Source: Candidatus Collierbacteria bacterium (GTDB lineage Bacteria > Patescibacteriota > Microgenomatia > UBA1400 > MFAQ01). From it: a DNA stretch of 39,664 nt. Positions 13,828-34,139 of the stretch are shown piece after piece. The notes under the pieces were generated by a model. It saw only the letters and a program-made list of their open reading frames with translations, was not told the DNA's origin and ran no database searches. The DNA lies in assembly GCA_903873735.1 (NCBI GenBank), contig CAIQPO010000094.1, positions 1-39,664 of the forward strand, written 5' to 3'. The position numbers and the translations under genes are program-made. How positions within the stretch are numbered: position 1 is the stretch's first letter; every line of letters starts with the position of its first letter.

Positions 13828-13834
13828 TTTCTTT

Positions 13835-14410: not shown

Positions 14411-14413
14411 TCT

Positions 14414-15427: not shown

Positions 15428-15444
15428 GGGTGTATAATTGGGTT

Positions 15445-15579: not shown

Positions 15580-15602
15580 GATTATTGATAAGTTCATTAA
15601 CT

Positions 15603-15747
15603 AGGCCTTTAGACAACATCATTTTTAACAATCGGAATACTTTTCCAGCGAAAAAGTTTCCTGATTCGCAGCTTACTGGTCGCAAGAGCGACGCCGTGCC
15701 AGTAAGCTTTACGAAACCTTGTTAAAAACGATATTGTCTTATGCCTG
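15603..15747. ncRNA. Candidate structured RNA domain (three-way junction); strand unresolved
   Basis: A 19-bp closing helix pairs 15611-15629 with 15721-15739 (17 Watson-Crick pairs) and is extended by AGGC/GCCT. It encloses a 10-bp hairpin at 15634-15661 and a 10-bp hairpin at 15670-15708 that has a nested CGC-AAGA-GCG stem. Confidence 0.45.
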
Positions 15748-15783
15748 GAGACTAATAATTAAAATTTATTGAGAATAAATAAT

Positions 15784-17550
15784 ATGGAAGATAACAAACT
15801 GTATAAGATTAGACACAGTGCGGAGCACGTGCTGACTCAAGCAATGGAGAGACTTTGGCCTGGGAAGATTGTGAAGGCAATGGGGCCAGCGATTGATGAT
15901 GGCTTTTATTTTGACTTTGATACTAATGATGGTCTGAAGATTTCGGAGAGTGATTTTCATGCGATTGAGAAGGAGATGGACAAGATTGTTAGGCAGAATT
16001 TGCCCATTACTCGACAGGAGCTCTCTGAAGAAGAGGCAAAAAAATTGTTTGAGGATAATCCGTATAAGCTTGAATGGATTGAAAAAGCAGTAGCTGAAAA
16101 AGAAGTGATTTCTGTGTATTGGACAGGTGAGCCTGGAAAGGAAGGCTCGTTTGTAGATTTGTGTGCAGGACCACATATTGAAAAGACAAGCGAGATTAAA
16201 GCTTTTAAGCTATTGTCACTTGCTGGTGCTTACTGGCATGGTGATGAAAAGAATAAGATGCTTACAAGGCTATATGGCACAGCTTATGGAAGCAAGGAAG
16301 AACTTGATCAACACATTTGGAGAATGGAGGAGGCTAAAAAGCGAGATCATAGAAAACTAGGAAGAGAGCTGGACCTCTTTACCTTTTCTGATTTAGTGGG
16401 CAGTGGCTTTCCTTTGTATACACCAAAAGGGGCAATGATTAGGAGATTGCTCAACCAGTTTGTGGAGGAAATGCAGACAGCAGAGGGATATCAGCAAGTA
16501 TGGACACCACAAGTGGCGAAGGGTGAACTGTTTAAAGCTTCTGGTCATTACGATAAATATGTAGGGGATATGTTTAGAGTGGTGAGTAATTACTCTGACG
16601 ATGAGTTTTTCCTAAAACCCATGAACTGCCCACAGCATACACAGATTTATGCTTCATCAGGGAGAAGTTATCGTGACTTACCTATAAGGATGACGGACTT
16701 TGCCATGCTTTATCGCGATGAGAAACCTGGAGAGCTTAATGGTTTGGCAAGAGTAAGATCTTTTTCTCAAGACGACTGCCATATTTTCTGCAGGGAAGAT
16801 CAGGTAGATAAAGAAATTGATACAGCTTTGCAGATGACGAAAAAAATTATGGATACTTTTGGATTGAAGTATCGATATAGATTATCCACTAGAGACAGAG
16901 AGCATCCAGAAAAATATTTAGGTAATCCAGAAACTTGGGATAGGGTAGAAATGTGGGCAGTGGAGATTATGAAGAGAAACAATATCCCTTATTACGATGG
17001 TCCTGGAGAGGCAGCTTTTTATGCTCCAAAGATGGACCTGATGGCTACCGACGCTTTGGGCAGAGAGTGGCAATTATCTACTGTACAGATTGATTATGTA
17101 CAACCAGAAAGATTTGGATTGAAGTACACAGATTCCGATGGAAGCGAAAAGACTCCAGTAATGATTCACAGAGCAATCTTGGGTTCGGCAGAGAGATTTA
17201 TGATGGTAATGCTAGAACACTTCGGAGGAGCGTTGCCATTGTGGTTGTCACCGGTACAAGTGAGAGTGCTGCCAATTTCTGATAAAACAATGGATGCTTC
17301 AAGAGAGCTAGTGAAGAGGCTTGCTGGAGCGGGGATTAGAGTGGAAATTGCAGATCAAGCCGACTCCTTAGGCAAGAAGATTAGGAATGCTGAAGCAGAG
17401 AAGATACCCTACATGGTGATAATGGGAGAGAAGGAGGTTGAGGCAAAAATGGTGGCGATTAGACAACGAGGGCAGAAGGACTTAGGCCAGGTGACTGAGG
17501 CTGATTTTGTATCAAGGATACTGACCGAAGTGGCTGAAAAGAAAATTTAG
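15784..17550 (+). CDS. thrS: Threonine--tRNA ligase lacking the N-terminal TGS domain
   Basis: It begins directly at the editing-domain IRHSAEHVL (HxxxH) motif. Class II core motifs are present (FRVVSNYSDDEFFLKPMNCP, FSQDDCHIF, MIHRAILGSAERF), followed by a C-terminal anticodon-binding domain. The track start at 15769 is TTG, so ATG 15784 is preferred. Confidence 0.92.
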   Translation: MEDNKLYKIRHSAEHVLTQAMERLWPGKIVKAMGPAIDDGFYFDFDTNDGLKISESDFHAIEKEMDKIVRQNLPITRQELSEEEAKKLFEDNPYKLEWIEKAVAEKEVISVYWTGEPGKEGSFVDLCAGPHIEKTSEIKAFKLLSLAGAYWHGDEKNKMLTRLYGTAYGSKEELDQHIWRMEEAKKRDHRKLGRELDLFTFSDLVGSGFPLYTPKGAMIRRLLNQFVEEMQTAEGYQQVWTPQVAKGELFKASGHYDKYVGDMFRVVSNYSDDEFFLKPMNCPQHTQIYASSGRSYRDLPIRMTDFAMLYRDEKPGELNGLARVRSFSQDDCHIFCREDQVDKEIDTALQMTKKIMDTFGLKYRYRLSTRDREHPEKYLGNPETWDRVEMWAVEIMKRNNIPYYDGPGEAAFYAPKMDLMATDALGREWQLSTVQIDYVQPERFGLKYTDSDGSEKTPVMIHRAILGSAERFMMVMLEHFGGALPLWLSPVQVRVLPISDKTMDASRELVKRLAGAGIRVEIADQADSLGKKIRNAEAEKIPYMVIMGEKEVEAKMVAIRQRGQKDLGQVTEADFVSRILTEVAEKKI

Positions 17551-17647
17551 GTGTAAGATATGAACACTATGTTGAGCCTTTGCCATCATTACTATTTTCA
17601 TTTACCATAAGGGGGGGAGGCGTTTTTGGATATTGAATTAGAAAAAA

Positions 17648-17671
17648 CCTCTCCCGCCGGAGAGGTTTTTT
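17648..17671 (+). terminator. Intrinsic terminator after thrS
   Basis: CCTCTCC-CGCC-GGAGAGG followed by T6, and preceded by A6 (possibly bidirectional). Confidence 0.8.
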
Positions 17672-17697
17672 GTTAGCAATTTTTATATATAAAACTT

Positions 17698-19017
17698 ATG
17701 AATAAAACAAAACCAAGAATATTATCAGGATTTATGGAGCTTTTACCAGCAGAGCAAATTGAGTTTAATAAAATGCTCATGGTAATAAGGAATACTTTTG
17801 AGGAGTTTGGATTTACACCTCAAGAAACGCCGCTTTTGGAGCCGGCGGAAATATTGTTGTCGAAATCTGGAGGAGAAACAGAAAAACAAATATATGCTTT
17901 TGAGAAGGGAGATGAAAAACTGGCTTTGAGGTTTGATTTGACTGTGCCTTTAGCTCGATTTGTAGCGATGAACTATGCTGAATTAACATTTCCTTTTAGA
18001 AGGTACCAAATTGGAAAAGTGTACAGAGGTGAGAGGGCACAAAGGGGAAGATTTAGGGAGTTTTATCAGTGTGACATTGATGTGGTAGGTGATGGCGGGT
18101 TGTCTCTTACGGCTGATGCAGAAATTCCAAGCGTGATTGCAAACTTGTTTAGGAGGCTTAACTTGGGTGGATTTACCATCAGAATTAATAATAGGAAAAT
18201 TCTGTCTGGATTGGTGGAGTCATTGAGCTTAAAAGATAAGAGATCAGAGGTATTAAGAGCGATAGATAAGCTGGAGAAAATAGGAAGAGACGGCGTGTTT
18301 GAGGAGCTCAAAAGCTTTGGGATCGAAGCTTTGGCGGCAGAGAAGATTTTAGAATTTGTTGAGATTGAGGGAACTAATGATGAGAAAATGACGAAGCTGG
18401 AAAACTTAGGAATTGATAATGAAGAGTTTAGACGCGGAGTAGCCGACTTGTGGGAGGTGATTCGTAAAGCCTACCTTTTTGGAGTAAGGGAGGGAGAGCT
18501 AGTAGTGGATCTGACTATTGCCAGAGGATTGGATTACTACACCGGCACTGTGTACGAGACTAAAATGGATGACGTGCGAATTCAGGGGAGTGTGTGCAGT
18601 GGTGGAAGGTATGACAACTTGGCAGAAACTTTTTGTGAAAGGAGATTACCTGGAGTGGGAATTTCTTTGGGTTTGACAAGATTGTTTTCTCAGTTACTTG
18701 ATGCGGGAATTGTGAAAGGTGGTACTAAGACTCCTGCAGATGTCTTAGTAATACCTATGGGAGAAGAACAAACAGATTATGCTCTTGGCGTAGCAGCTGA
18801 AATGCGTGGTGCTGGGATAAGGGTTGAGGTGTATACAGAAGAGGTAAAACTGGGTAAGAAATTTGTATATGCTGATAGATTAGGTGTAAAGTGGGCGGTA
18901 GTGCTAGGAGGAGATGAGGAAAGTGCGAACTTGGTGACACTTAAAAATATGTCTTCTGGTGAGCAGGAAAAAGATACTTTGGCAGCTATTGTTAATAAAT
19001 TAAAGGAAGTAGTATGA
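17698..19017 (+). CDS. hisS: Histidine--tRNA ligase
   Basis: Class II motifs (LRFDLTVPLARF, RRYQIGKVYRGERAQRGRFREFYQCD, GGRYD, GISLGLTRL) and a C-terminal anticodon-binding domain. Confidence 0.93.
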   Translation: MNKTKPRILSGFMELLPAEQIEFNKMLMVIRNTFEEFGFTPQETPLLEPAEILLSKSGGETEKQIYAFEKGDEKLALRFDLTVPLARFVAMNYAELTFPFRRYQIGKVYRGERAQRGRFREFYQCDIDVVGDGGLSLTADAEIPSVIANLFRRLNLGGFTIRINNRKILSGLVESLSLKDKRSEVLRAIDKLEKIGRDGVFEELKSFGIEALAAEKILEFVEIEGTNDEKMTKLENLGIDNEEFRRGVADLWEVIRKAYLFGVREGELVVDLTIARGLDYYTGTVYETKMDDVRIQGSVCSGGRYDNLAETFCERRLPGVGISLGLTRLFSQLLDAGIVKGGTKTPADVLVIPMGEEQTDYALGVAAEMRGAGIRVEVYTEEVKLGKKFVYADRLGVKWAVVLGGDEESANLVTLKNMSSGEQEKDTLAAIVNKLKEVV

Positions 19018-20099
19018 ATAAAAAAGAATTTGAAAAAGCTTTAGGTAGGTTAGTTGAGCTTAGAACACTACCTGGAGATTTAGAAGCAAATAAATTAGCT
19101 CTGGATTTGGTGGAGAAAGAGCTTGACGGGCGGCTTGTTGTGGATAGGTTTCAGAATGGTAAAGCTGAAGTATTGATTGCTTCGGTGAATGCTGGGGTCA
19201 GTCCTGAATATTGCTATATGGTGCACATGGATGTGGTGGCAGGCAGGGAGGATCAGTTTGAGATGGTGGTGGATGGAGATAAACTAGTGGGAAGAGGCGC
19301 TTGTGATATGAAGTTTTCTGTGCCGATTGGAGTAGCCTTGATAAATGAGGCTGCAGATAAGGGAGTGGACTTTGCTTTGGTAATTACGACAGATGAGGAG
19401 GTGGGCGGAATTGAAGGAGCTAAGTATCTAAAAGAGGAAAGAAGGTATGCCCCCAAGGCTTTAATTGTGCCAGATGGTGGAGAAAATTTGAACTTTGTGG
19501 ATAAGGCTAAAGGTGTGTGCCAAGTAAGGGTGGAAGCTAAAGGACGACCAGCTCACGCATCAAGACCATGGCTTGGAGAAAATGCCCTGGATAAGCTGTC
19601 GCTTCTGGCGGCAAGGTTGCTTAAAGATTACGGGGAAAATAATAGAGTTGAGGGGTGGAATACCACTATGAATATTGGGACTGTAAATGGTGGGGTGTCG
19701 ACCAACCAAGTTTGCCCGGCTGCAGAGATGAAGCTTGATTTCAGATATCCCGAAACAGATTCGATAGAAAACATTCTGGAGACTGTTAAGAGATATGCAA
19801 AGGAGATTGGTGGGGATATTGAGGTAAGTCTGATGAGTACAGGACTGCCTACTTTCACTGATGTAAATGATAAACGAGTGCAAATATACTTGAAAATAAT
19901 GGAAGAGCAGTTTGGAAGAAAGATTGAGATAAAGCCAACATACGGTGCATCTGACGCAAGGCACTTTGCGGATTTGGGATGTCCTGTAATTATGCACAAA
20001 CCATTGGGTGGTGAGATTCACTCGGATTACGAGTGGGTAAGCAGTGAGTCATGCATGACTTTTTACCAGGGTATGAGAAAATTTTTAGGATTACAATAA
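19014..20099 (+). CDS. M20-family metallohydrolase (ArgE/DapE/ACY1/CPG2-like deacylase)
   Basis: HMDVV metal ligand, GRGACDMK, TTDEEVGG, and a dimerisation-domain insert. Overlaps hisS by ATGA. Confidence 0.8.
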   Translation: MNKKEFEKALGRLVELRTLPGDLEANKLALDLVEKELDGRLVVDRFQNGKAEVLIASVNAGVSPEYCYMVHMDVVAGREDQFEMVVDGDKLVGRGACDMKFSVPIGVALINEAADKGVDFALVITTDEEVGGIEGAKYLKEERRYAPKALIVPDGGENLNFVDKAKGVCQVRVEAKGRPAHASRPWLGENALDKLSLLAARLLKDYGENNRVEGWNTTMNIGTVNGGVSTNQVCPAAEMKLDFRYPETDSIENILETVKRYAKEIGGDIEVSLMSTGLPTFTDVNDKRVQIYLKIMEEQFGRKIEIKPTYGASDARHFADLGCPVIMHKPLGGEIHSDYEWVSSESCMTFYQGMRKFLGLQ

Positions 20100-20102
20100 G
20101 CT

Positions 20103-21305
20103 ATGAATAAAGAAGAATTAATTGAAAGTTTTTTAACTAGGGGGGTAGAAAATATTATCCCTGGTAGAGCTGAGCTAGAGAAGTTGTTGAATTCTAGCAA
20201 AGTGCTCAACGTGTATCTGGGAATTGATCCAACTGCCACAAGGATTCACTTGGGTCATGCCTTTCCTTTAAGGAAGTTGCAGATACTGGCAGATTTAGGT
20301 CATAAGGTGACATTTCTTATTGGTGACTTTACTGCCAAGGTGGGCGATACATCTGATAAAGAGACTGAGAGACCGGTACTAACAGATGAACAGATTGAAG
20401 AAAATTTTCAGACGTACAAAAGGCAGGCGGAAAAACTTTTGGATTTTTCTAAGGTAGAGCTTCATCATAATAGTGAATGGCTAGCCAAGCTTTCTTTTGG
20501 AGAAGTGCTAAAACTGACACAGAATTTTTCATTAAACGACTTTATTAGTAGAGAGCTAATAAAGAAAAGATTGACAGAGGGAAAGAGGGTGAGTTTACCT
20601 GAGACTTTGTACCCGATAATGCAAGGATACGATAGTTTGGTTATGGATACAGACATACAGCTAGGAGGTACCGATCAAACCTTTAACATGCAAGCAGGAA
20701 GAACTCTGATTGCCAATCTTAAGGGCAAAGAATCATTTGTGGTGGCTAATGGATTTTTACCAGGAACTGACGGTAGGAAGATGAGTAAAACTTGGGGGAA
20801 CGCGGTGTGGCTTGAAGATTCACCGGAAGAGATATATGGCAAGATAATGTCAATATCTGACGAGGTGATAGAAACTTATTACCTGATGGGAACTAATGCT
20901 CCAAAAGAAGTAATTGATGATGCTAAGAGGAGACTTTCTAGTGGGGAGAATCCGATGAATCTAAAGAAGGAGCTGGCATCACTAATTGTGACTGAACTAT
21001 GTGGAGAAGGGGCAGTACTTCAGGCGAGTGAACATTTCAGAAAAACTGTGGTGGAAAAAACGGCGGGAGAGGATACAAAAATTGTAACAGTGTCTCAACA
21101 GAACATGACAGAACAGGGAGTGATGGCTTTGGTGGTAGAGAATGGTTTGGTGAGTAGCAACTCGGAGTATAAGAGGTTACTTGAAGAGGGAGCTGTTTAC
21201 TTAAATGAAGTCCGACTCGAGAAGGGAAAAGAAATCAATTTTCAATCTGGAGAGAATGTTCTTCGTCTAGGTAAGCGTAAATATTTAAAGCTAGTCTTGT
21301 CTTAA
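20103..21305 (+). CDS. tyrS: Tyrosine--tRNA ligase
   Basis: HIGH motif (RIHLGH), KMSKT, GTDQ, and a C-terminal S4-like domain. Confidence 0.93.
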   Translation: MNKEELIESFLTRGVENIIPGRAELEKLLNSSKVLNVYLGIDPTATRIHLGHAFPLRKLQILADLGHKVTFLIGDFTAKVGDTSDKETERPVLTDEQIEENFQTYKRQAEKLLDFSKVELHHNSEWLAKLSFGEVLKLTQNFSLNDFISRELIKKRLTEGKRVSLPETLYPIMQGYDSLVMDTDIQLGGTDQTFNMQAGRTLIANLKGKESFVVANGFLPGTDGRKMSKTWGNAVWLEDSPEEIYGKIMSISDEVIETYYLMGTNAPKEVIDDAKRRLSSGENPMNLKKELASLIVTELCGEGAVLQASEHFRKTVVEKTAGEDTKIVTVSQQNMTEQGVMALVVENGLVSSNSEYKRLLEEGAVYLNEVRLEKGKEINFQSGENVLRLGKRKYLKLVLS

Positions 21306-21652
21306 TGGTAGAGTTTGAGGATTTGGTGAAAGAAATATCTGCTGACAAGGAGTGCGTACGCTGGAAGCAGCCTGGTTGGTGTAGGATGTGGAGCGACAAA
21401 GCTCTGGATTTGTTTGATGGAATGGGTTTGATTGAGGGTGAGAGTGCGATGCCAATGGAGTGTGAGCCGTCTCCTGGATACTTTCATACATTTGTGATGT
21501 TTGAGTCCGGTGGACAGAAATGGGTGCTCAATGGAGTAGCCTGTGTGGGTTTTGAAGAATATTTTGGAGATTTGGAACAAGCACCAGAACCTGCTAGAAA
21601 AGCATGGGTCGATTCTTGGATAGTGGAAGCAAGAAACTCTTTAGTTAATTGA
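21305..21652 (+). CDS. Hypothetical protein (115 aa)
   Basis: Its start overlaps the tyrS stop by 1 nt (TAATG). Host-typical composition. No motif recognised. Confidence 0.5.
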   Translation: MVEFEDLVKEISADKECVRWKQPGWCRMWSDKALDLFDGMGLIEGESAMPMECEPSPGYFHTFVMFESGGQKWVLNGVACVGFEEYFGDLEQAPEPARKAWVDSWIVEARNSLVN

Positions 21653-21811
21653 ATTGATATATTTTGTTATATTGACACTTAATATCTCTGGTGGTAGCTT
21701 GACTTTAGCTATGATTTGGAAGGTTGAATATTTGAGACTGTTTTTTGCCCAAAATTTTGTGTGGAAGTTTTTCCTGTTTATGTTTATGTTTTTCCCCAAG
21801 AATCTTAAACA

Positions 21812-21836
21812 GGGTGCTATGGGGCGCCTTTTTTTT
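21812..21836 (+). terminator. Short hairpin plus T8, 35 nt upstream of the decarboxylase operon (terminator or attenuator)
   Basis: GGUGC (21813-17) pairs with GCGCC (21824-28), including one G-U pair, with loop UAUGGG. T8 follows at 21829-21836. Confidence 0.45.
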
Positions 21837-21870
21837 CGAACGAATATTGTTATCAATTTATTGAAAAATT

Positions 21871-23355
21871 ATGAGTAAAGAAAGATTTAAGAGGCTGGAG
21901 CTAGCTAAGGAGTTTGCCCGTGATAGCGAGCATTCGGTAGAGGAAATTGATAAGGTGCTAGCTGCTTATTTTGATCCAGATAATCCAGAGGTGGGTCTGG
22001 AAAAATTTATGCATAACTTGGAGGAGATGGCAGTGAGTGGTAGGGAGCTTACAGAGAATGATTTAGCAGTGATTCAAGCACTAAATACAGTACTGGCTGA
22101 TGTGAAGGATGCGAGACTGTTTAATGAAACCTATTTGGGCCACATGTTAACAGAAGCATCAATTCCTGGAATGCTGGGATATATCATGGGTATTAGAACT
22201 GGGTCGAATACTGTGGCAAGAGAGGTGTCAATATTTGAGTCTGAACTAGAACCTGAAGCGATTAAGGGACTGTTGGACATGGTGGGGTTTGACAGAAATA
22301 GAGGAGATGGAACTTTCACATCAGGCGGGAGCATGGCAATGCAAACTGCTCTAATGGCTGCTAGGAGAAAGATGGCTGCTGCGGGTGTAGAACCAACCAG
22401 AGACCATCCACTTTTGGTACTCGGAACACCATATACTCACTATTCTGTAGCGAAGATGTGTGACATTATTGGAGGTCCAAGTGGATTAGTGCAGAAGCGA
22501 GACGTTGGAGTAAATCAATTCAAAATGGATGCCGACTCTTTGGAGGTGAGTTTGCTTGAGGCAAGAAGAAACCATGATACAGTGATGGCTATCGTGGCTA
22601 TCGGAGGAGAAACAGAAACTGGAATTGTGGATCCAATAAGAGAGATTGTGGACTTGGGGGAGAAATATGGAGTGCCAGTAATTGTTGATGGGGCGTATGG
22701 AGCTCCATACAACCTGTCGAGGAATGGAAAATTATTTGAAGGGATGGGCAGAGCTTTTGCTGTAACCATAGACCCACACAAGGCTCTTAATACTCCATAC
22801 TCAAATGGAGCAACTCTATTTAGAGAAAAGGAAGACATGTATCTTGGTTATGGTGACAGATCAACGTATTTAGGTAGAGGTGCTAACTTGGGGCAAAAAA
22901 GAATTGAAGGTTCGATGGGACCTGGGCCGATTCTGTCTACTGTAGCAGTGATGAGAGCTCTGGGAAGTGAGGGTTTGACCACGCTTTATGACTTAACTCT
23001 GGATAGAACAGAGCATATGTTTGAGCGAGTGATGGACTCAGAAGTTTTGCAAAATCTTTACTATCCGGAACTAAACCTGCTTTGTTTTACCATTAAGCCT
23101 GAAGTGGTGGAGAAGTTGGGAGTTGGGACGGTGGATGATTTGCAAAACTTAATTGATGAAACTAGGAAAGACCTCGATGGAGGCATTAAAGGTAGAGGAG
23201 GATATTTCTTTTCGGCGACAGCATTACCACTACCAGACGGTAAAGCACTGCCTGTGTTTAGAGCTTGTTTGATGAATCCTCGAACAACAAATGCAATTGT
23301 GGATGCATCAATTGGAGGCTTAGAAAAAATTATTAAAAAAAGAATTAAAAAATGA
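21871..23355 (+). CDS. Group II PLP-dependent decarboxylase (MfnA/GadB/tyrosine-aspartate decarboxylase-like)
   Basis: TSGGSMAMQTALMAAR, GGETETGIVDPI, VDGAYGA, and DPHK with the PLP-binding lysine. Confidence 0.8.
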   Translation: MSKERFKRLELAKEFARDSEHSVEEIDKVLAAYFDPDNPEVGLEKFMHNLEEMAVSGRELTENDLAVIQALNTVLADVKDARLFNETYLGHMLTEASIPGMLGYIMGIRTGSNTVAREVSIFESELEPEAIKGLLDMVGFDRNRGDGTFTSGGSMAMQTALMAARRKMAAAGVEPTRDHPLLVLGTPYTHYSVAKMCDIIGGPSGLVQKRDVGVNQFKMDADSLEVSLLEARRNHDTVMAIVAIGGETETGIVDPIREIVDLGEKYGVPVIVDGAYGAPYNLSRNGKLFEGMGRAFAVTIDPHKALNTPYSNGATLFREKEDMYLGYGDRSTYLGRGANLGQKRIEGSMGPGPILSTVAVMRALGSEGLTTLYDLTLDRTEHMFERVMDSEVLQNLYYPELNLLCFTIKPEVVEKLGVGTVDDLQNLIDETRKDLDGGIKGRGGYFFSATALPLPDGKALPVFRACLMNPRTTNAIVDASIGGLEKIIKKRIKK

Positions 23356-24491
23356 AGAGGAACTCAGAAAATTTAATACATTATGGATTTATCAGGGGAA
23401 AAGATTATGCCTCTGATGTGACAAGACCTGAAGGAATTGAAGAGATAGATTGTGGTTTGGGACACTCACCTTTTGGTTTTCCTGAAGTAGCCAGAGAGGC
23501 ACTGAAAAACATCGATCCAAGACTTTTAAATGAGTACCCTGCTGATCCCTACTCTGACGCATTAGCGGCGAATGTGAGAAGAAGATTTGGATTGGAAAAG
23601 AAAGCTGGGGTGTTTTTTGATGGGGCTGGTAGTTATGGATTACTGGCTACTATCCTTAGTAATCTAGTAGCAAACGAGGGAGTGAGGAGGGGGTCGAGGG
23701 TAATTGGTGTTGGTCCGCAGTTTACAAATATTGCGATGCTTGCCCACAGGGCAGAAGTGCCTTATCAACCCCTAACCCCAGATCTGAACTTACCTTATGA
23801 GGAAAAGTTGGATTTGTTAGTGGCCAATCGAGAAAAAGATAGACAGGCAGCAATAGTATATGTAGATAATCCAAACAATCCGACTGGAGCGGCAGTGGGG
23901 ATTGATAAAATTGTGGATTTGGCTGAAGCTACAGCAAACGGTGACCTATTGATTGTGGATGAAGCATATGGAGACGCTGTGCCTGATTCTTGGTCTGCAT
24001 TTAATATTTTGGAAAGTTATCCTCATATTATTGTGGTGAGATCGCTTTCCAAGACAATTGGGCTAGCATCACCAAGACTGGGGTATGTGGGAATGTCGGA
24101 ACCAGTGGCTGATGTGTATCGGGAGATGCGGTTGGTATTTACGGTGGATGCACTTACTTACCTCATTGCGCATAAAGTGATGGAACCGGAAGTGTTGGCA
24201 GAATTTTTGCCTAGAGTTAGACAGATGACCATGGAGAAAAAGCTGGAGTTTTTGGATATTTTGGCGAAGAATGGGGTGAATGTTTTTGAAAGTATGGATA
24301 CAGTGAGCATATTACTAGCTGAAGGTGGTGATAACTTTTATGAGAAGTTGTTTGCCTTGGGTATAAACACAGAAGATGGAGCAACATTTGAGCCAACTCA
24401 CCCAGAGATGAACAATAGTATGGTGAGGTTTAGAATTCCTGCCGACTCTAGAAAAATTCAAGAGGTAGGCAAAAGATTAAAAAATATTTAG
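23352..24491 (+). CDS. Class I/II PLP aminotransferase, HisC/CobD-like
   Basis: DNPNNPTG, VDEAYGD, and SLSKTIGLASPRLGY (SxSK with the PLP lysine). Overlaps the upstream gene by ATGA. Confidence 0.8.
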   Translation: MKRNSENLIHYGFIRGKDYASDVTRPEGIEEIDCGLGHSPFGFPEVAREALKNIDPRLLNEYPADPYSDALAANVRRRFGLEKKAGVFFDGAGSYGLLATILSNLVANEGVRRGSRVIGVGPQFTNIAMLAHRAEVPYQPLTPDLNLPYEEKLDLLVANREKDRQAAIVYVDNPNNPTGAAVGIDKIVDLAEATANGDLLIVDEAYGDAVPDSWSAFNILESYPHIIVVRSLSKTIGLASPRLGYVGMSEPVADVYREMRLVFTVDALTYLIAHKVMEPEVLAEFLPRVRQMTMEKKLEFLDILAKNGVNVFESMDTVSILLAEGGDNFYEKLFALGINTEDGATFEPTHPEMNNSMVRFRIPADSRKIQEVGKRLKNI

Positions 24492-24498
24492 GTAATTT

Positions 24499-25425
24499 AT
24501 GGCAAAGGAATACGATAGAAGAACAGAAAGTTTAAGAAGAGCTTCGGTTGAGGCAGAATTTTTGCCACTACCAGACGGGAGAAGTTGGCAGAAGGAAGTT
24601 GAGGGAGATGTAAAAGAGTTTAGAATGCTTGATTGGAGGAATATTGCTGAATTAGATGAGGTGGTGGAACTGCAAGATAAGGTATGGAAAATGGGAGATA
24701 GGAATTTGGTGCCAGAAAATATCTTGGCAATAATTGAGGAGGTGGGAGGAGAGGTGGTCACCGCCAAATCATCCAGGGGTGAACTTGAGGGTTTTACCTT
24801 GTGTTTACCAACAAATGACCCTGAAAGGCAGTTTTTGCACATGGTGGGTGTCCAGGAGGGTAGTAGCTCAAGGGGTTTGGGGAGGGAATTGATGGTGATA
24901 ACTGGGGTGGTGGCAAAGGAGAAGGGGGTAAAGCGGGTTGATTGGACTTACGACCCGATAATGGGTGGTAATGCCCGTCTTTATTTATCTAAGCTGGGTG
25001 CGGTGCCTTATAAGTACACCATTAATAAATATGGCATTGTGGAAAATAAGGGTGCGGGAACAGAATCGCGTTATAAAAATGTGGAGACAGACAGATTTAC
25101 GGTGCGATGGGAGATTGGTGACGAGAGATTGTGGAGAGCGGTGCTCGCAAACAAAGCTTACAATATGGTGATTGATAATGAGCTTGAGTGGGACGGAAGC
25201 GGGGAGACCCCCGATTTATTTAGAGTAAGCTTGCCTTATGATTTTACTCACCTTTCAACAGATGAAATGATGGACTGGAGGAGACATCTCAGAGGAATCT
25301 GTTTGGCTACCATGGACTATGACAATATTGATGACCGTAGGGTGGTTGAGGGGCAGTTTGAGGTGGTTGGTTTTGGAGTTGATACTGTTGGTGGCGTAAA
25401 TTGCTATAATTTTAAGCGTAAATGA
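24499..25425 (+). CDS. Uncharacterised protein, probable GNAT-fold acyltransferase
   Basis: The core HMVGVQEGSSSRGLGRELMVITGVVAKEKGVKRVDWTYDPIMGGNARLYLSKLGA resembles the GNAT acyl-CoA-binding beta4-alpha3 region. The assignment is by pattern only. Confidence 0.45.
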   Translation: MAKEYDRRTESLRRASVEAEFLPLPDGRSWQKEVEGDVKEFRMLDWRNIAELDEVVELQDKVWKMGDRNLVPENILAIIEEVGGEVVTAKSSRGELEGFTLCLPTNDPERQFLHMVGVQEGSSSRGLGRELMVITGVVAKEKGVKRVDWTYDPIMGGNARLYLSKLGAVPYKYTINKYGIVENKGAGTESRYKNVETDRFTVRWEIGDERLWRAVLANKAYNMVIDNELEWDGSGETPDLFRVSLPYDFTHLSTDEMMDWRRHLRGICLATMDYDNIDDRRVVEGQFEVVGFGVDTVGGVNCYNFKRK

Positions 25426-26528
25426 AAATTAAATCCGCCAAGATTTATCACATAGTGCTACCGATGAAGTTTGCTTTTGTGACTGGTTTTGGGGAGATAA
25501 AGGAAAGAGATGCGGTGCTCGTACGGCTTGAGACCAGTGATGGGGTTGTCTGTTGGGGAGAGAGTGCAGCCTTGGCGGCACCGCTTTATCTGGAGGAGAC
25601 GGTCCAGACTTGTATTCACATACTTAAAGATTTTTTATTGCCGAGGCTAAAGGAAAGAGATATTTCTCCGGAAGAATTTGCCCAAGAGATTGGTTTTATT
25701 AGAGGTAATAACTTAGCAAAACATGGAGTAGAGACTGCACTTTGGTCGATTAAATCAGAGATGGAGGGAAAATCTGTATCTCATCTGCTTGGAGGGGTGA
25801 GAGAGGGGGTACCGGTGGGTGAGAGTGTGGGGATGACTGAGACTGTGGAGCAACTGCTTGCTATTGTGCAAAAAAGGCTGGATGAGGGATATCAGAGGAT
25901 TAAGCTGAAGATCAAGCCAGGACATGACTTTGATTATGTGAAGTCGGTAAGGGATGCATTCCCTAAGATACAAATCATGGTGGATGGCAACTCGTCGTAT
26001 AAGCTGTCGCAGATTGATGATTTGAAGAGATTGGACGAGCTGGATTTGCTTATGATGGAACAGCCACTTGGGTATGACGATATTGTGGATCACGCTAAAC
26101 TTCAAAAAGAAATTAGAACACCAATCTGTTTGGATGAAAGTATCATCCACGCTGAAGATGCTAGAAAGGCCATTGAACTAGGCGCTTGTAAGGTAATCAA
26201 CGTTAAACCCGGGAGAGTGGGAGGGTTGGTGGAGTCAAAAAAGATTAATGAGCTGGCGAAGAAACATGGGATTAGACTGTGGTGTGGAGGCATGCTGGAG
26301 ACAGGAATTGGAAAGGCTTACAACCTGGCAGTGGCCTCCTTGTCGGAGTTTTCGTTGCCTGCCGACATTGTGCCTACAACTACCTTTTTTAATGAAGATG
26401 TGACTGTGCCAGATTTGGTGGTAAGCAACAAGGGAGAGATTGAGGTTCCTAAGACTGCAGGATTAGGATTTGAGGTACGCGAGGATAAGGTACAGAAGTA
26501 TTTGAGGGGTGAATGGACAGTGTTTTAA
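25422..26528 (+). CDS. Enolase-superfamily MLE-subgroup enzyme, o-succinylbenzoate synthase / N-acylamino-acid racemase family
   Basis: All catalytic positions are visible: KxK (RIKLKIKPG), metal ligands D (MVDGNSSY), E (MMEQPL) and D (CLDESI), and the second-face Lys (INVKPGRVGG). Confidence 0.85.
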   Translation: MKIKSAKIYHIVLPMKFAFVTGFGEIKERDAVLVRLETSDGVVCWGESAALAAPLYLEETVQTCIHILKDFLLPRLKERDISPEEFAQEIGFIRGNNLAKHGVETALWSIKSEMEGKSVSHLLGGVREGVPVGESVGMTETVEQLLAIVQKRLDEGYQRIKLKIKPGHDFDYVKSVRDAFPKIQIMVDGNSSYKLSQIDDLKRLDELDLLMMEQPLGYDDIVDHAKLQKEIRTPICLDESIIHAEDARKAIELGACKVINVKPGRVGGLVESKKINELAKKHGIRLWCGGMLETGIGKAYNLAVASLSEFSLPADIVPTTTFFNEDVTVPDLVVSNKGEIEVPKTAGLGFEVREDKVQKYLRGEWTVF

Positions 26529-26640
26529 GGTTGTGATATATTGTCTGTAATGGTGAACGTTTTATCTTTTAGCTTCTTTTTTAGCTTCCCTAACCGGGGA
26601 GGCTCTAGGCTGTAGCTAAAAGTAAACACAAGCCAGAGGA

Positions 26641-26662
26641 CCTCCCTAGGGGAGGTTTTTTT
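26641..26662 (+). terminator. Intrinsic terminator after the four-gene cassette
   Basis: CCTCCC-TAG-GGGAGG followed by T7. Confidence 0.8.
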
Positions 26663-26674: not shown

Positions 26675-26917
26675 ATGAAAAAAATGGAAAAAAGAACGCA
26701 AGAAGCAGTAGGGGTATTAGAAAAAATTGGTTGGGAGATGATGGTAGTAGATGATGGGGGGGTGAGAATGGCGGAAGAAGGTGAGGTGGGGGTTGTGGCT
26801 CAACTGGCTGGAGCTGGTAGAGATTTAGGAGCTTCGTGGCAAGAAATTGAGGTAGCCCTGGAGAAGATAGGGATAAAACTAAGAGAGGTAAAAAAAGAGG
26901 AAGGATCTGTGATCTGA
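26675..26917 (+). CDS. Hypothetical small acidic protein (80 aa)
   Basis: ORF with host-typical composition, between a terminator and the RSH gene. No motif recognised. Confidence 0.4.
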   Translation: MKKMEKRTQEAVGVLEKIGWEMMVVDDGGVRMAEEGEVGVVAQLAGAGRDLGASWQEIEVALEKIGIKLREVKKEEGSVI

Positions 26918-26959: not shown

Positions 26960-28777
26960 ATGGCAGCGGTAAAAGAAATTAGGCCTAGAATTGATTTTGA
27001 ATCAAACCCAGTGGTTTTTGCGGAAGCAAGTAATGATAGGGTGGAGTCGGCACTATTTGTGGCAGCTCAAATACATGAAGGAGACAGAAGAAAGATTAGT
27101 AAGGAGCCGTATCTACATCACTGCGTTGCGGTGGCGAGTATTTTAGAAAGCTGGGGGGCTGATGAAGATTTAGTGGTAGCGGGATTGCTTCATGATACCG
27201 TGGAAGATCATCCTGATTTAATAGATTTTGAGGATGTGGAGAGGCTCTTTGGGAAGCGTGTAGCAGCACTCGTCTGGGGAGTAACAAAATTTAAGTCGAG
27301 AGAGGGAAAAGAAAGTGATTTTGAAACCTTAAGAAAAGTAACCAAAGAAAGCTTGATTGATTATGGGGTGGCAATTATTAAGCTGGCTGATAGGCTTCAC
27401 AACATGATGACTTTGGAGGGAATGCCAGAGCTGAAGAGAATAGCTAAGGCAAAGGAGACGTTGGCTGTTTATACACCACTGGCGGAGTCGTTTGGTTTGT
27501 GGCAGATAAAAAATGCCTTAGCTGATTTGTCGTTTATGAATTTGGAGGAGAAAAGATACTGGAGATATAGAAGGGTGATTGATGAGGACCCGAGATTGGG
27601 ACGGGAGTTTATTGAAAATATGGAGATGGGACTTGCAAGAATTCTGCGGGATGGAGGGGTAACAGCTGTGGTGGAGCATCAGGTTGGTGGATATTGGGAG
27701 ATGGTGGATAAACAGAGGAGAGCTGGGATGTCGGGTGAAGTGCGTCCTGGGAGTTTTTATCAGATAGCTGACTTAGTGAGTTTTAGAGTGATTGTTGATG
27801 GTGATGATTTGGCTACGTGTTATCGGGCAATGGGAGTGGTGCGACAGGCTCTTTCTGGCCAACTGGACGTGTATCAGCATGATGATTATCTGATTTCTCC
27901 CAGCGTGAATGGGTATAGTGCAATACATGATACATACAGACTTAGAGAGGGTTGGGTGGAGGTGGCGTTTACTACCAGGAAAAAGGAAAATTTTAATAAC
28001 TGGGGGGTGATGGCGTTGCCCAAAGAAGAGATTGCACGTCAGCCGGAACTATACTTAAGAAAACTAGTGTTTACGCCTAAAGAGGAATTGATTTTCATGG
28101 ATCCACAGGCTAAGGGAATAGATGTGGCCTACAAGTTGAATCCGCTTTTAGGGCTAAGGGCAAGGACGATGAGGATTGACGGTGAGGAATGTGGTTTGGA
28201 GGTGGTGGTGCCTAATTCAGCGGTGGTGGAAATACTAACGGATCAGAGAAGAAGAGTGCCTAATAGAGAGTGGCTGAGGAGCTGCAATGAGGAAACAAGG
28301 GAGGCAATTGAAAGACAGATAGCGTGGTCTGAGAGAATGACAGAAATTGATACCGGAAAGGAGCGTTTGAGAGAAATAGTATTAAAAGGAAGGGGTTTGT
28401 TGGAGCTTACGGATTTAGGTGAGGAAGTAGTGGATAAATTACTTATGGATTTGGGTTGTTGGGGGGGTGTGGATGATTTGTATTTTAAAGTGGCTTATGG
28501 AATGGACTTGGGAATGGTGGAGAAAAAACTTGATATGTTGGGGGTAGTTAGGGGGAAGTTTGTATCGGTGGAGATTAGGGGTGAGAATCAGGTGGGAGTG
28601 TCAGTGGAGATTGCGTCAGTGGTAACAGATTTGGGAGGGGATGTGAGAAATAAAAATGAGAGAGTGGACTATGAAGAAAGATTTGTGGTGAGGATGCTTC
28701 TGAGGCTGTCTGGAGATAAAAAAGGCGAACTGGAAAAAAGATTGAGAGAAAAGTATAGTCAGGTGGTGGTAGTGTAA
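26960..28777 (+). CDS. RelA/SpoT homolog (long RSH) with intact HD hydrolase, degenerate synthetase, TGS and C-terminal regulatory domains
   Basis: HD domain: RKISKEPYLHH, LLHDTVED, KLADRLHNMMTL. Synthetase-like region: ADLVSFRVIV, DDYLISPSVNGYSAIHDT, VEVAFTT. TGS domain: VFTPKEELIFMDPQAKGIDVAYKLN...RIDGEE...VVEILT. Confidence 0.85.
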   Translation: MAAVKEIRPRIDFESNPVVFAEASNDRVESALFVAAQIHEGDRRKISKEPYLHHCVAVASILESWGADEDLVVAGLLHDTVEDHPDLIDFEDVERLFGKRVAALVWGVTKFKSREGKESDFETLRKVTKESLIDYGVAIIKLADRLHNMMTLEGMPELKRIAKAKETLAVYTPLAESFGLWQIKNALADLSFMNLEEKRYWRYRRVIDEDPRLGREFIENMEMGLARILRDGGVTAVVEHQVGGYWEMVDKQRRAGMSGEVRPGSFYQIADLVSFRVIVDGDDLATCYRAMGVVRQALSGQLDVYQHDDYLISPSVNGYSAIHDTYRLREGWVEVAFTTRKKENFNNWGVMALPKEEIARQPELYLRKLVFTPKEELIFMDPQAKGIDVAYKLNPLLGLRARTMRIDGEECGLEVVVPNSAVVEILTDQRRRVPNREWLRSCNEETREAIERQIAWSERMTEIDTGKERLREIVLKGRGLLELTDLGEEVVDKLLMDLGCWGGVDDLYFKVAYGMDLGMVEKKLDMLGVVRGKFVSVEIRGENQVGVSVEIASVVTDLGGDVRNKNERVDYEERFVVRMLLRLSGDKKGELEKRLREKYSQVVVV

Positions 28778-28836
28778 AGAATTATTAGTAAAATTAAACT
28801 ATAGATACTTTAATCAAGACACTGGGAGAGGAAAGG

Positions 28837-29838
28837 GTGAAGGCAGATGTGCCACTCGGTTTGCACACTACTTTGGGAATTGGAGGGAAGGCAGATTTGT
28901 TTTATGAAGCAAGAGATAGTTTGGAGCTCGTTAAGGCGGTGAGACTTTCTAAGAGTTTGGGAATTCCTGTAACAATAATTGGCGGTGGAAGTAATATATT
29001 GGTCGGTGATAAAGGTGTCAGGGGACTGGTGGTAAAGAATGTTGGTGGAGTAATTAAAATTGGGAAGGACAAAGAGCCAATCGGAGCACTTCCTGAAGAG
29101 GTGGGAGCGAGATGGCAGGCTGACTCAACAGTGGGAAGTTTTAAATATGATTTTGCTGATTTGGATTATGATGAGTGGGACGAGAAACGAGTGGAGGTGG
29201 TAGTTGATTCGGGTGTGCCACTATCGGTACTGATGATGAGTATGGCTGACGCGGGAGTTACTGGATTGCAATGGTATTCAAGGATTCCGGGGACAGTGGG
29301 CGGGGCAATTTTTAATAATATTCACGGAGGGACTCATACGATAGGTGAGGTGGTAGAAGGTGTGAAGCTCATTGACAGAAATGGGGAAATTCGAGAAATA
29401 TCAAGTGAGGCTTTGGGTATGGGTTATGATGTGTCTCGATTCCACAATTCCGGTGAGATCATTTTAGAGGTAAAGTTTAACCTGTTTAGGGGTGATGTAG
29501 ATAAAAGTAGATGGGTGATTGGAGAGTGGGCTAAAAGAAAATCAATTCAGCCTGGTAGATCTGCTGGATGTGTATTCAAAAATATTGCCGATGCCGATAA
29601 GGAGAGACTGGGTCTGCCGACTGGTTCGGTGGGTTATTTGGTTGAACATGTTTTGAAGTTGAGTGGATTTCGGGTGGGGGACGCTGCCGTGTCTGATGCC
29701 CATAAAAACTTTATAGTAAATGTGGGATCAGCGACTGCCTCTGACTTTGTGGGGGTAAGGAATGAGATTGTGATGAGGGCGAAGGAAAAGTGCGGTATTG
29801 ACTTAGAGTCAGAGATTATTTTGATGGGAGAGTTTTAG
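28837..29838 (+). CDS. murB: UDP-N-acetylenolpyruvoylglucosamine reductase
   Basis: HTTLGIGGKADLF, IGGGSNILV, GTVGGAIFNNIHGG, and SAGCVFKN motifs. GTG start. Confidence 0.9.
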   Translation: MKADVPLGLHTTLGIGGKADLFYEARDSLELVKAVRLSKSLGIPVTIIGGGSNILVGDKGVRGLVVKNVGGVIKIGKDKEPIGALPEEVGARWQADSTVGSFKYDFADLDYDEWDEKRVEVVVDSGVPLSVLMMSMADAGVTGLQWYSRIPGTVGGAIFNNIHGGTHTIGEVVEGVKLIDRNGEIREISSEALGMGYDVSRFHNSGEIILEVKFNLFRGDVDKSRWVIGEWAKRKSIQPGRSAGCVFKNIADADKERLGLPTGSVGYLVEHVLKLSGFRVGDAAVSDAHKNFIVNVGSATASDFVGVRNEIVMRAKEKCGIDLESEIILMGEF

Positions 29839-30938
29839 ATAATTTCTCTTTCAACCCTCTCTGAAATTGAAGTGAAAATTTCGTATGGGGTGGTGCCAAG
29901 TATTTGACTGATTGAGTAAATTGAGCTGGGGCTGGTAGTATCATCGCTGATAAGACAGACAGGTTGGTAGAGTTTTGGAACTGGAGATGTTTGGGATATA
30001 TCAAGGGAAATCTGATCCATTGAAACTCGTCCAATTACCGGGCAAAGATGTTTTCCAATAAGAGCGTGTGGCCAAGGATTTGGTCCTCGGCGTAAACCAT
30101 CAGCATACCCTCCAGCAATGGTGGCACACAACAAATCTTTCTTGGCTTTATATGTGAGGTTGTAGCCAATACTTTCCCCTGACTTGAGGGTGTGGATTCT
30201 GGAAATTTCGGTGGTAAGAGACATGGTTGGCATAAGCCCGAAGTCGATGCCATCTTCTTGGAAAGGATTGATACCGTGAAGAGCTAATCCTGGGCGAACC
30301 ATGTCCAGATGTGTCTCCGGGTGTTTGAGAATAGCAGCTGAATTTGCTGCATGAAGGACTACATGTGGGTAGATGGATTTAACTTGTTGGGTAAGTTTTG
30401 AAAAGAGATCAAATTGGATGTGGGTGTAATTTGAGTTGATCATGTCCGCGTCGGCAAAGTGGGTAAATATTCCAACTAGATTTATATGACCTTGTTTTGG
30501 AAGAAGAGATAATATTTCTTGAAATTCTTGAGCGGTGGCGCCGGTTCGGTGCATGCCAGTATCAACCTTAATGTGAATATTGGCCTTGGTTTGGATTTTT
30601 GAGGCGATGTTGTTTAGAGAGAGAAGGTCTTTTGGATTGGTGATGGTGAGAGAAATATTTTCCTTAATGGCTTGAGGAAAAAGGTGGGGGTTTATTGGGC
30701 TTAAGATGAGAATTTCAGGAGAAGCTGAAATTTGGCGAAGATTAAGAGCCTCGTTTAGTCTGGCGACACCAAAATGACTAATACCTTCTTTGAGGTAGAA
30801 ATCACAGAGGTGGCGGGCTCCATGTCCGTAGGCGTTGGCCTTGAGGATAGCCATAATGCGTGTGTTTGGCTTTAGATGTTTGCGAACGATATTTAAGTTG
30901 TGGTGGAGGCGGGATGATGAAATAGTAGCCTTGATCAT
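29835..30938 (-). CDS. alr: Alanine racemase
   Basis: AILKANAYGHG (PLP lysine), IHIKVDTGMHRTG, GYADG, and RVSMDQ. Its stop codon overlaps the murB stop (TTAG). Confidence 0.92.
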   Translation of the reverse strand: MIKATISSSRLHHNLNIVRKHLKPNTRIMAILKANAYGHGARHLCDFYLKEGISHFGVARLNEALNLRQISASPEILILSPINPHLFPQAIKENISLTITNPKDLLSLNNIASKIQTKANIHIKVDTGMHRTGATAQEFQEILSLLPKQGHINLVGIFTHFADADMINSNYTHIQFDLFSKLTQQVKSIYPHVVLHAANSAAILKHPETHLDMVRPGLALHGINPFQEDGIDFGLMPTMSLTTEISRIHTLKSGESIGYNLTYKAKKDLLCATIAGGYADGLRRGPNPWPHALIGKHLCPVIGRVSMDQISLDISQTSPVPKLYQPVCLISDDTTSPSSIYSISQILGTTPYEIFTSISERVEREII

Positions 30939-30983
30939 AAGGAGTAAAAATATTGATAACGGGCTAGGTTATAATTATAAGAT

Positions 30984-32444: not shown

Positions 32445-32463
32445 GGGGAGTAAAATCAGAGTC

Positions 32464-34124: not shown

Positions 34125-34139
34125 CTAGGGTAGGGTAAA

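Follow-up and report, generated by a model that had tools for sequence, protein, structure and literature searches.

A four-gene operon lies on a 39,664-nt stretch of DNA from a Candidatus Collierbacteria bacterium (contig CAIQPO010000094.1, assembly GCA_903873735.1; this whole stretch is hereafter called the window). It encodes a decarboxylase and an aminotransferase, both dependent on pyridoxal 5'-phosphate (PLP), a protein resembling Gcn5-related N-acetyltransferases (GNAT), and an enolase-superfamily enzyme of the type of N-succinylamino acid racemases and o-succinylbenzoate synthases (NSAR/OSBS). Based on sequence comparisons, we propose with moderate confidence that this operon represents, in the window, a conserved module of the Candidate Phyla Radiation (CPR)/Patescibacteria, in which a transient N-acyl handle would permit inversion of an amino-acid alpha-carbon, coupled to the two PLP enzymes. 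The operon comprises the following elements, in window coordinates:

21871..23355, + strand: decarboxylase gene, 494 aa, group II (fold-type I), PLP-dependent
23352..24491, + strand: aminotransferase gene, 379 aa, HisC/CobD-like, class I/II, PLP-dependent
24499..25425, + strand: GNAT-like gene, 308 aa, GNAT-fold acyltransferase-like
25422..26528, + strand: NSAR/OSBS gene, 368 aa, enolase superfamily, presumed N-acyl-amino-acid racemase
21653..21870, + strand: A+T-rich intergenic leader, 218 nt
26640..26662, + strand: operon terminator, ACCTCCC-TAG-GGGAGGT followed by T7

Reading the sequence directly, we find an ATGA shared by the decarboxylase and aminotransferase genes (23352-23355), 7 nt between the aminotransferase stop codon (TAG, 24489-24491) and the ATG of the GNAT-like gene at 24499, and a second ATGA (25422-25425) where the GNAT-like gene adjoins and overlaps the NSAR/OSBS gene. 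The terminator, with its 7-bp G+C-rich stem and 3-nt loop, has a folding energy of -17.9 kcal/mol (z = -3.2), and none of 200 shuffled sequences is as stable. The hairpin followed by T8 at 21811-21838, within the leader, is weaker (-10.7 kcal/mol, z = -1.4) and probably represents the end of the upstream hisS-M20b-tyrS-orf115 unit, from which the cassette is separate. An earlier note on this DNA had described four open reading frames (ORFs) with two ATGA overlaps and a 7-nt gap, an AT-rich leader and a strong downstream terminator, all belonging to one operon. Coordinates and junctions match exactly, the leader is indeed an A+T-rich gap, the terminator withstands folding and shuffling, and tight junctions together with this terminator bear out the single operon. 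A riboswitch, T-box or other RNA in the leader was also considered and is ruled out by the Rfam results: no family reaches its gathering score anywhere in the window, and only chance-level matches occur within 21550-21950.

The sequence of the 368-aa enzyme places it firmly within the NSAR/OSBS subfamily (MLE subgroup, enolase superfamily). It matches Pfam PF13378 and PF02746 (157 and 44 bits) and scores 348.4 bits against TIGR01928, for a cut-off of 200.65, with its homologs in other copies of the module at 286-328 bits. Its best PDB matches are the Thermus N-acylamino acid racemase 2zc8 (1.6e-94), the Listeria protein 1wuf (9.6e-93) and the Amycolatopsis NSAR 1sja (2.2e-83). Window residues K161, K163, D188, E213, D238 and K262 align with K161/K163, D189, E214, D239 and K263 of the Amycolatopsis enzyme, and R265 aligns with R266 of 1sja, a second-shell Arg described as specific to the NSAR/OSBS subfamily (10.1101/2022.03.03.481873). 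K161, K163, D188, E213, D238, K262 and R265 are all invariant across the module homologs (11/11). The family profile, the PDB matches and the catalytic residues thus agree with the placement that the earlier note had given this enzyme.

The 308-aa protein resisted identification by sequence alone: Pfam and NCBIfam yield no match, and a phmmer search of the PDB returns only a weak match to YqjY (1mk4, E = 0.034), so that structure prediction was required. In an AlphaFold model based on six homologs (predicted local distance difference test, pLDDT, 79; predicted TM-score 0.80), an N-terminal GNAT domain is followed by a C-terminal extension of about 100 aa. The 50 best Foldseek matches of this model in the PDB are all GNAT acetyltransferases, aligned over the N-terminal 170-200 residues. 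At the acyl-CoA-binding loop, Q/R-x-x-G-x-G/A, the family consensus is Q-S-R-G-x-G; the window protein has S-S-R-G-L-G, and clade B (defined below) has Q-S-N-N-I-G. Homologs show weak PF00583 matches, and sources label the wider family 'predicted GNAT superfamily acetyltransferase'. An exhaustive HMMER search with the 308-aa protein gave 1111 representative clusters at E<=1e-10 and 12 at E<=1e-30, which suggests that its close subfamily is rare. The predicted fold and its structural matches agree with the GNAT likeness claimed earlier, and we regard the protein as a presumed amino-acid N-acyltransferase. Some family members are labelled 'chorismate synthase' by the Joint Genome Institute (JGI). 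In two non-CPR loci (L012 1-9723 and L011 6054-8902) a GNAT-like+NSAR pair lies 3' of an NmrA/epimerase-like gene, with L012 also having a complete shikimate operon ahead of the pair and a cyclase after it, a context which may explain these labels.

Searches starting from the decarboxylase and the 308-aa protein yielded 12 more distinct loci, on low-G+C contigs of metagenomes and metagenome-assembled genomes; 11 of these are informative (L020 is left out). CPR organism labels are attached to three: L007 (Candidatus Amesbacteria), L020 (Microgenomates group) and L014 (Candidatus Saccharimonadales, from a decarboxylase identical to NCBI HUC94543.1). Five activities, namely the decarboxylase, the aminotransferase, an amide-forming enzyme, an NSAR-type enzyme and an M20-family hydrolase, are clustered in all 11 informative loci, in four gene orders besides that of the window. 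L006 is only partly visible, its contig ending before any decarboxylase gene, and its sole M20 is of the type called M20b below. The refuting conditions named in the earlier note all turn out in favour of its reading; it had made this reading depend, among other things, on the four genes occurring together elsewhere, and the cassette genes are indeed co-localised in other genomes. Gene order and flanking genes vary among loci, as follows:

L007, L013: decarboxylase>aminotransferase>GNAT>NSAR>M20
L006: aminotransferase>GNAT>NSAR>small ORF>hisS>M20b
L001/L002, L004, L005, L014: GNAT>NSAR>aminotransferase>M20>decarboxylase
L021: M20 on the - strand, then aminotransferase>GNAT-like>NSAR>decarboxylase
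L018, L019: GCS2>enolase with decarboxylase>aminotransferase>M20
L020: decarboxylase alone, a different GNAT and an M20 lying 2.4-4.6 kb away on the opposite strand

Pairwise identities define a clade A (window, L006, L007, L013, L018) and a clade B (L001, L004, L005, L014, L019). Between the clades, identity is about 50% for the GNAT-like protein, about 40% for both the NSAR and the decarboxylase, and 57-62% for the in-module M20. The aminotransferases share 24-29% identity across the clades, which suggests that A and B carry different HisC-like subfamilies; those of the window, L006, L007, L013, L018 and L021 are mutually 46-62% identical (49-62% to that of the window). Judging from such identities, non-orthologous replacement has affected three functions, namely those of the aminotransferase, of the M20 and of the paired GNAT and racemase. 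Co-retention of the module through rearrangement and replacement argues for selection on a pathway and against chance adjacency.

The third replacement is the most informative for the proposed core. A gene for a 484-aa protein matching Pfam GCS2 in part (30.7 and 36.7 bits, for a cut-off of 21) takes the place of the GNAT-like gene in L018 and L019. GCS2 is the glutamate-cysteine ligase family 2, whose members are ATP-dependent carboxylate-amine ligases. The two pairs, in each of which the genes overlap by 14 nt, are located as follows:

L018 5224-7798, - strand: GCS2-like + NSAR-type pair
L019 2953-5530: GCS2-like + NSAR-type pair

The enolase-superfamily partners of these ligase-like proteins have all catalytic residues intact and score 326-328 bits against TIGR01928. 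The two share 62% identity, but only 37-50% with the GNAT-partnered NSARs. The remaining enzymes have diverged far less: the decarboxylase, aminotransferase and M20 of L018 are 66-74% identical to their counterparts in the GNAT-type locus L013, and those of L019 are 67-76% identical to the counterparts in the GNAT-type loci L001, L004 and L014. That the enolases have diverged against a constant background suggests that amide-forming enzyme and racemase were exchanged as one unit. Recognition, by the racemase, of the acyl group that its partner attaches would predict such co-variation. The pair exchange, as read from these comparisons, is strong comparative evidence for an acylate-racemise-deacylate core.

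The pathway that we envisage has a precedent in Geobacillus kaustophilus, where a GNAT succinyltransferase, an NSAR and an M20 L-desuccinylase irreversibly convert D- to L-amino acids (10.1101/2022.03.03.481873; PMC12006748). In the window, the GNAT-fold protein would N-acylate a free amino acid from an acyl-CoA, and the NSAR/OSBS enzyme would racemise the N-acyl amino acid at its two-lysine, Mg2+-dependent 1,1-proton-transfer site. An M20 enzyme would then deacylate one of the two enantiomers, most probably the L form, making the conversion irreversible. The aminotransferase and the decarboxylase may either supply the free amino acid or convert it, yielding a 2-oxo acid and an amine. The acyl handle would be attached by the GNAT-like protein and acyl-CoA in the window, and by an ATP-dependent ligase in the GCS2 loci. 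The sequences themselves show the gene families, the intact catalytic residues, the operon structure, the retention of five activities through rearrangement and the non-orthologous replacements; in this scheme we infer all of the chemistry, along with the substrate, the acyl donor, the direction from D to L and what the two PLP enzymes do. The peptidoglycan-derived D-Ala or D-Glu that the earlier note offered as possible substrates are, like this direction, conjectural.

In the window, the deacylating M20 could only be the product of the following gene:

19014..20099, + strand: M20b gene, ArgE/DapE-like metallohydrolase (PF01546 + PF07687), between hisS and tyrS

The in-module type of M20 is present in L001, L004, L005, L007, L013, L014, L018, L019 and L021. 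M20b shares 55-62% identity with its hisS/tyrS-linked M20b counterparts in L006, L005 and L019. Identity to the in-module M20s, themselves mutually 57-74% identical, is only 43-48%. Two loci, L005 and L019, carry both types. These identities and the co-occurrence of both types suggest that M20b is a separate paralog with a conserved position of its own. They rule out another possibility that we considered, that the upstream gene is a relocated module gene. The earlier note was correct in placing an M20 hydrolase within the hisS-tyrS unit, but this gene is not simply a displaced desuccinylase of the module, as it belongs to a distinct paralog group. The deacylase step of the window is either M20b, as a possible stand-in, or encoded outside the window. 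In NCBIfam, both M20 types match the DapE and ArgE/DapE models best, with scores below the cut-offs of 381 and 217.6 in the window M20b (145.8 and 128.2) and in the in-module M20 of L001 (148.7 and 139). A third type of M20, 31-37% identical to the others, occurs in L021 and L020. The start of M20b overlaps the hisS stop codon, and tyrS begins 4 nt past the M20b stop. Linkage of M20b to aminoacyl-tRNA synthetase genes is repeated elsewhere, as hisS>M20b in L006 and as M20b>tyrS in L019.

The decarboxylase (PF00282, 88 bits in Pfam) displays SGGS, THYS, VDGAYG and the PLP-lysine motif DPHK, and its orthologs in related loci are 37-73% identical. The aminotransferase (PF00155, 95 bits) displays NPNNPTG, DEAY and SLSK and has the PLP-Lys motif. 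All catalytic signatures listed in the earlier note, including the KxK, the D/E/D ligands and the second Lys of the enolase-superfamily enzyme, are thus present in the translations. Against NCBIfam, the decarboxylase scores 124.8 for PanP (cut-off 606), 104.9 for 2,4-diaminobutyrate (DABA) decarboxylase (cut-off 900) and 89.4 for MfnA (cut-off 299). Comparison with the PDB puts it at about the same distance from DABA decarboxylase, GAD65/67, CSAD and further solved structures. The aminotransferase scores 125.5 for TIGR01141 hisC (cut-off 276.55) and 110.4 for CobD (cut-off 290.55), and its best PDB match is the HisC 3euc (1.6e-18). We also tried to name substrates from these enzymes; the attempt was abandoned as PanP, DABA decarboxylase, GAD, MfnA, HisC and CobD are all about equally distant.

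A further gene may belong to the module. Every locus has, directly behind its last module gene and in the same orientation, a small ORF that is either homologous or positionally equivalent. It encodes 48-81 aa (140 aa in L021) and is located as follows:

Window 26675..26917, + strand: small ORF, 80 aa, C-terminal Ile, candidate sixth component
L001 14261-14437: small ORF
L004 8139-8348: small ORF
L005 10113-10322: small ORF
L006 3474-3719: small ORF
L007 5923-6087: small ORF
L013 11244-11408: small ORF
L014 14314-14517: small ORF
L018 11899-12060: small ORF
L019 9710-9892: small ORF
L020 9706-9852: small ORF, behind the lone decarboxylase
L021 9704-10126: small ORF

The C-terminal residue is Ile in all 11 distinct sequences, many of which have a DPxxxNxI tail. 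Clade A proteins contain a W..Y..aLEKiGi.L motif, doubled in the 80-aa forms in a manner resembling tandem duplication. Pfam gives no match for the small ORF, and tblastn of the window with the small ORFs of other loci finds none. AlphaFold modelling from the single sequence (pLDDT 73) predicts a C-terminal tail that is disordered; Foldseek returns nothing for this model at E <= 0.001, so fold assignment failed. None of the nine shorter proteins with full sequences (48-69 aa) contains cysteine, and neither a LysW-type zinc ribbon nor a C-terminal Glu is present. The small ORF is possibly a carrier or scaffold, or a partner of the decarboxylase. The best promoter-like site of the region (26514-26542: TGGACA, 17 nt, TATATT, with an extended TG) spans the NSAR stop codon and sits 5' of the terminator and the small ORF, so that the terminator hairpin could also belong to a 5' leader of the small ORF. 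In clade B loci, an ORF of about 190 aa, always on the - strand, is conserved directly after the small ORF (33-47% identity, no Pfam match); tblastn of the window finds no homolog. Its positions are:

L001 14434-15009: ~190-aa ORF
L004 8341-8913: ~190-aa ORF
L005 10319-10882: ~190-aa ORF
L014 14514-15092: ~190-aa ORF
L019 9889-10446: ~190-aa ORF

Upstream of the operon, the window encodes argRS, a class II aminoacyl-tRNA synthetase of the Asp/Lys/Asn type, thrS, hisS, M20b and tyrS. Five synthetase genes (ArgRS, the Asp/Lys/Asn-type enzyme, ThrRS, HisRS and TyrRS) thus lie within 11 kb (10579-21305), in a run broken by two tandem dTDP-sugar-isomerase-like (cupin) ORFs (13835-14410 and 14414-15427). 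In most related loci, too, the module is flanked by synthetase genes. The last gene before the leader is:

21305-21652: orf115, 115 aa, overlapping the tyrS stop by one base, no Pfam match

A weak homolog of orf115 lies near the module in L019 (10519-10812; 27% identity, E = 3e-5). Downstream (26960-37283) are relA/spoT, murB, alr (- strand), a Mur ligase gene, murA, ddl and a second Mur ligase gene (- strand); adjacency of peptidoglycan genes to the module is not conserved in other loci. Nearly all long genes of the window are on the + strand. On that strand G greatly outnumbers C, the GC skew of each 1-kb bin being 0.24-0.56. A strong G/C disparity is a published peculiarity of the Microgenomates order UBA1400, whose members are without respiration or amino-acid biosynthesis (PMC7143001).

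Several points weigh against the acyl-handle reading. CPR bacteria generally are without a tricarboxylic acid (TCA) cycle (PMC7143001), and succinyl-CoA, the donor in Geobacillus, may therefore be unavailable. According to tblastn, M20b is the only M20 in the window, where the in-module type is absent. The GCS2 call rests on partial Pfam matches, with no sequence match in NCBIfam or the PDB. Neither PLP enzyme reaches any NCBIfam equivalog cut-off, hence there is no nameable substrate. The acyl-handle model also offers no specific reason for the presence of both an aminotransferase and a decarboxylase, and it leaves the conserved Ile-ending small ORF unexplained.

The puzzle of the two PLP enzymes would disappear if the module were an N-acyl-protected route for making or salvaging a diamino or dicarboxylic amino acid, following the logic of diaminopimelate (DAP)/lysine or ornithine synthesis. 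The GNAT or GCS2 enzyme would acylate the alpha-amine, the aminotransferase and decarboxylase would act on the distal end of the protected compound, the NSAR would set the configuration of the protected centre and the M20 would release the product, as in a conversion of scavenged meso-DAP to L-lysine that dispenses with LysA. An acyltransferase, a class I aminotransferase, an M20 and a decarboxylase mirror DapD/DapC/DapE/LysA, or ArgA/ArgD/ArgE plus a decarboxylase. This likeness to the DAP and Arg enzyme sets, the DapE and ArgE/DapE matches of both M20 types and the position of the window module beside MurB, Alr, MurA, Ddl and two Mur ligases all favour such a route, which would give the five enzymes one linear pathway. 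However, the DapE, DapC and ArgE matches are far under their cut-offs, none of the loci contains dapA, dapB, asd or an arg-type kinase/reductase gene, the peptidoglycan-gene adjacency is absent from other loci, and the route is stereochemically speculative. Relatives of this organism, moreover, are without amino-acid biosynthesis (PMC7143001). We consider this route unlikely, if by no means negligible. The same cell-wall neighbourhood invites a reversal of the direction, in which an L-amino acid would be acylated, racemised and deacylated D-specifically to yield a D-amino acid, for instance for the cell wall. NSAR is intrinsically reversible, alr, ddl and mur genes lie near the module in the window, and in Listeria an NSAR/OSBS gene occurs in a cell-wall-gene operon where its role is unexplained (PMC12006748). 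That Listeria protein (1wuf) is the second-best PDB match of the window enzyme. The peptidoglycan neighbourhood is not conserved, however, and the decarboxylase and aminotransferase are of L-specific fold types that fit better after an L-product. To our knowledge, characterised M20-family N-acyl-amino-acid hydrolases are L-specific and the known D-acylases come from another superfamily, which also argues against a D-specific release. We give the reverse direction a slim chance.

Equally slim, in our estimation, is the chance that the small Ile-ending protein is itself a carrier or scaffold whose C-terminal carboxylate serves as the 'acyl' group, in the manner of LysW and other amino-group carrier proteins (AmCP) or of the pearlins. 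A ligase would load the amino acid, the NSAR-type and PLP enzymes would modify the tethered residue, and the M20 would release the product. The small ORF does follow the last module gene in 12/12 loci whatever their gene order, with the Ile end and the disordered predicted tail described above. GCS2-family ATP-dependent ligases could load a protein C-terminus, and there is a precedent for release in LysK, an M20 enzyme which frees lysine from LysW. Yet a GNAT cannot activate a carboxylate, and the small ORF is kept in GNAT-type loci; its occurrence behind the lone decarboxylase of L020 suggests instead a link with the decarboxylase, for example a regulatory one. The zinc ribbon, the C-terminal Glu and any structural match are all missing, and PLP enzymes require a free alpha-amine. 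A broader version, improbable but marginally less so, is a six-component CPR pathway in which the small protein would be a carrier or obligatory partner for amino-acid stereo-inversion and PLP processing, with interchangeable loading chemistry (acyl-CoA and GNAT, or an ATP-dependent GCS2-like ligase). If true, this would give organisms without amino-acid biosynthesis an unrecognised means of producing or salvaging an amino acid or amine essential to them. Two other explanations are effectively excluded. That tight packing and inherited synteny have brought the genes together in a compact genome, without any common pathway, might be expected from the density of CPR genomes and from a conserved neighbourhood rich in synthetase genes (thrS, hisS, tyrS, serS, pheST). 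The activities nevertheless stay together through at least four gene orders, strand inversions (L018, L021), non-orthologous replacements and differing flanks, which makes coincidence very improbable. Still less credible is a genuine MenC (o-succinylbenzoate synthase) acting in menaquinone synthesis among unrelated neighbours. The enzyme does exceed the cut-off of TIGR01928, a model named o-succinylbenzoate synthase by NCBI, and many NSAR/OSBS enzymes catalyse both reactions (PMC12006748). However, the window, annotated over all its 39.6 kb, contains no other men gene, and nor do the 12 related loci, as the earlier note, which doubted this role, would lead one to expect. Related Microgenomates are without respiration (PMC7143001), and the gene co-varies with the amide-forming enzyme.

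We thus return to the N-acyl handle as the preferred reading. CPR/Patescibacteria make up a large share of bacterial diversity and have genomes of about 1 Mb without amino-acid biosynthesis. That five or six genes are kept in such reduced genomes through rearrangement and replacement suggests that the function of the module is probably important. The module would take the one characterised physiological role of NSARs, D-to-L conversion, into a new lineage, and would add obligatory PLP partners and an alternative, ATP-dependent attachment of the acyl handle. It may offer an entry point to D-amino-acid handling, or to the derivation of amines and keto acids, in scavenging or episymbiotic organisms. 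Natural GNAT- and ligase-partnered pairs may likewise give access to the determinants of N-acyl specificity in NSAR/OSBS enzymes, and the small ORF to a possible participation of a small protein. The enzymes may also interest those developing dynamic-kinetic-resolution biocatalysis. The earlier note had not recognised the addition of a decarboxylase and an aminotransferase as a described pathway, and we found no description of the module in the literature searched on CPR/Patescibacteria with NSAR/OSBS, racemases or carboxylate-amine ligases, a coverage that leaves out the main NSAR genome-context survey and is no proof of novelty. The core is of a known kind, the acylate-racemise-deacylate pathway; what we did not find described are the two PLP enzymes and small ORF in CPR, the GCS2-like replacement and the co-varying racemase.

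Among known systems, the LysW/AmCP pathways (LysX, LysJ, LysK) resemble the module in combining a small protein, a ligase, an aminotransferase and an M20, and in placing a removable amide handle on an amine. They differ in that the small protein of the module lacks a zinc ribbon and ends in Ile rather than Glu, its amide-forming enzyme is GCS2-like or a GNAT rather than an ATP-grasp ligase, and it has a racemase and a decarboxylase but no kinase or reductase. The DAP/lysine branch (DapD/DapH, DapC, DapE, DapF, LysA) comprises the same five kinds of activity: acyltransferase, aminotransferase, deacylase, epimerase and decarboxylase. Three of its proteins, however, are unrelated to their module counterparts: its acyltransferase is a left-handed beta-helix and that of the module a GNAT; its epimerase is DapF and that of the module belongs to the enolase superfamily; and its decarboxylase is of fold-type III on the LysA side, compared with fold-type I here. 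The module proteins are also below equivalog cut-offs and unaccompanied by upstream dap genes.

Closer likenesses are found among clusters containing the 308-aa family outside CPR. In six of the seven informative non-CPR loci a member of this family adjoins an NSAR-type gene; four of the six (L008, from Limnochordales, L009, L015 and L016) contain a divergently transcribed M20, in agreement with the trio published for Geobacillus, and at least two (L008 and L009) have a PLP enzyme of Cys/Met metabolism downstream. This suggests that an arrangement of the trio plus a PLP enzyme potentially consuming the L-amino acid product recurs. These high-G+C NSAR>GNAT>Cys/Met PLP clusters share with the module a GNAT-like protein (28-37% identity), an NSAR (about 40%) and an M20, but their PLP partner is PF01053, of the cystathionine or methionine gamma-lyase type.

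Operons like the Geobacillus kaustophilus trio have been reported in Lysinibacillus and Roseiflexus (10.1101/2022.03.03.481873; PMC12006748). The CPR module departs from this trio by its host, by the invariable addition of a decarboxylase, a HisC-like aminotransferase and an Ile-ending small ORF, by the lack of an M20 in the window operon, and by the exchange, in some genomes, of GNAT+NSAR for a GCS2-like ligase and an NSAR-type enzyme. The GNATs are alike in superfamily and gene context, and the supply of succinyl-CoA is doubtful in CPR. The link to the Geobacillus pathway drawn in the earlier note is nonetheless apt: as in the trio, the GNAT gene is translationally coupled to that of an NSAR with all catalytic residues, including the equivalent of R266, there is no men context, and an M20 gene lies in the same cluster in related genomes.

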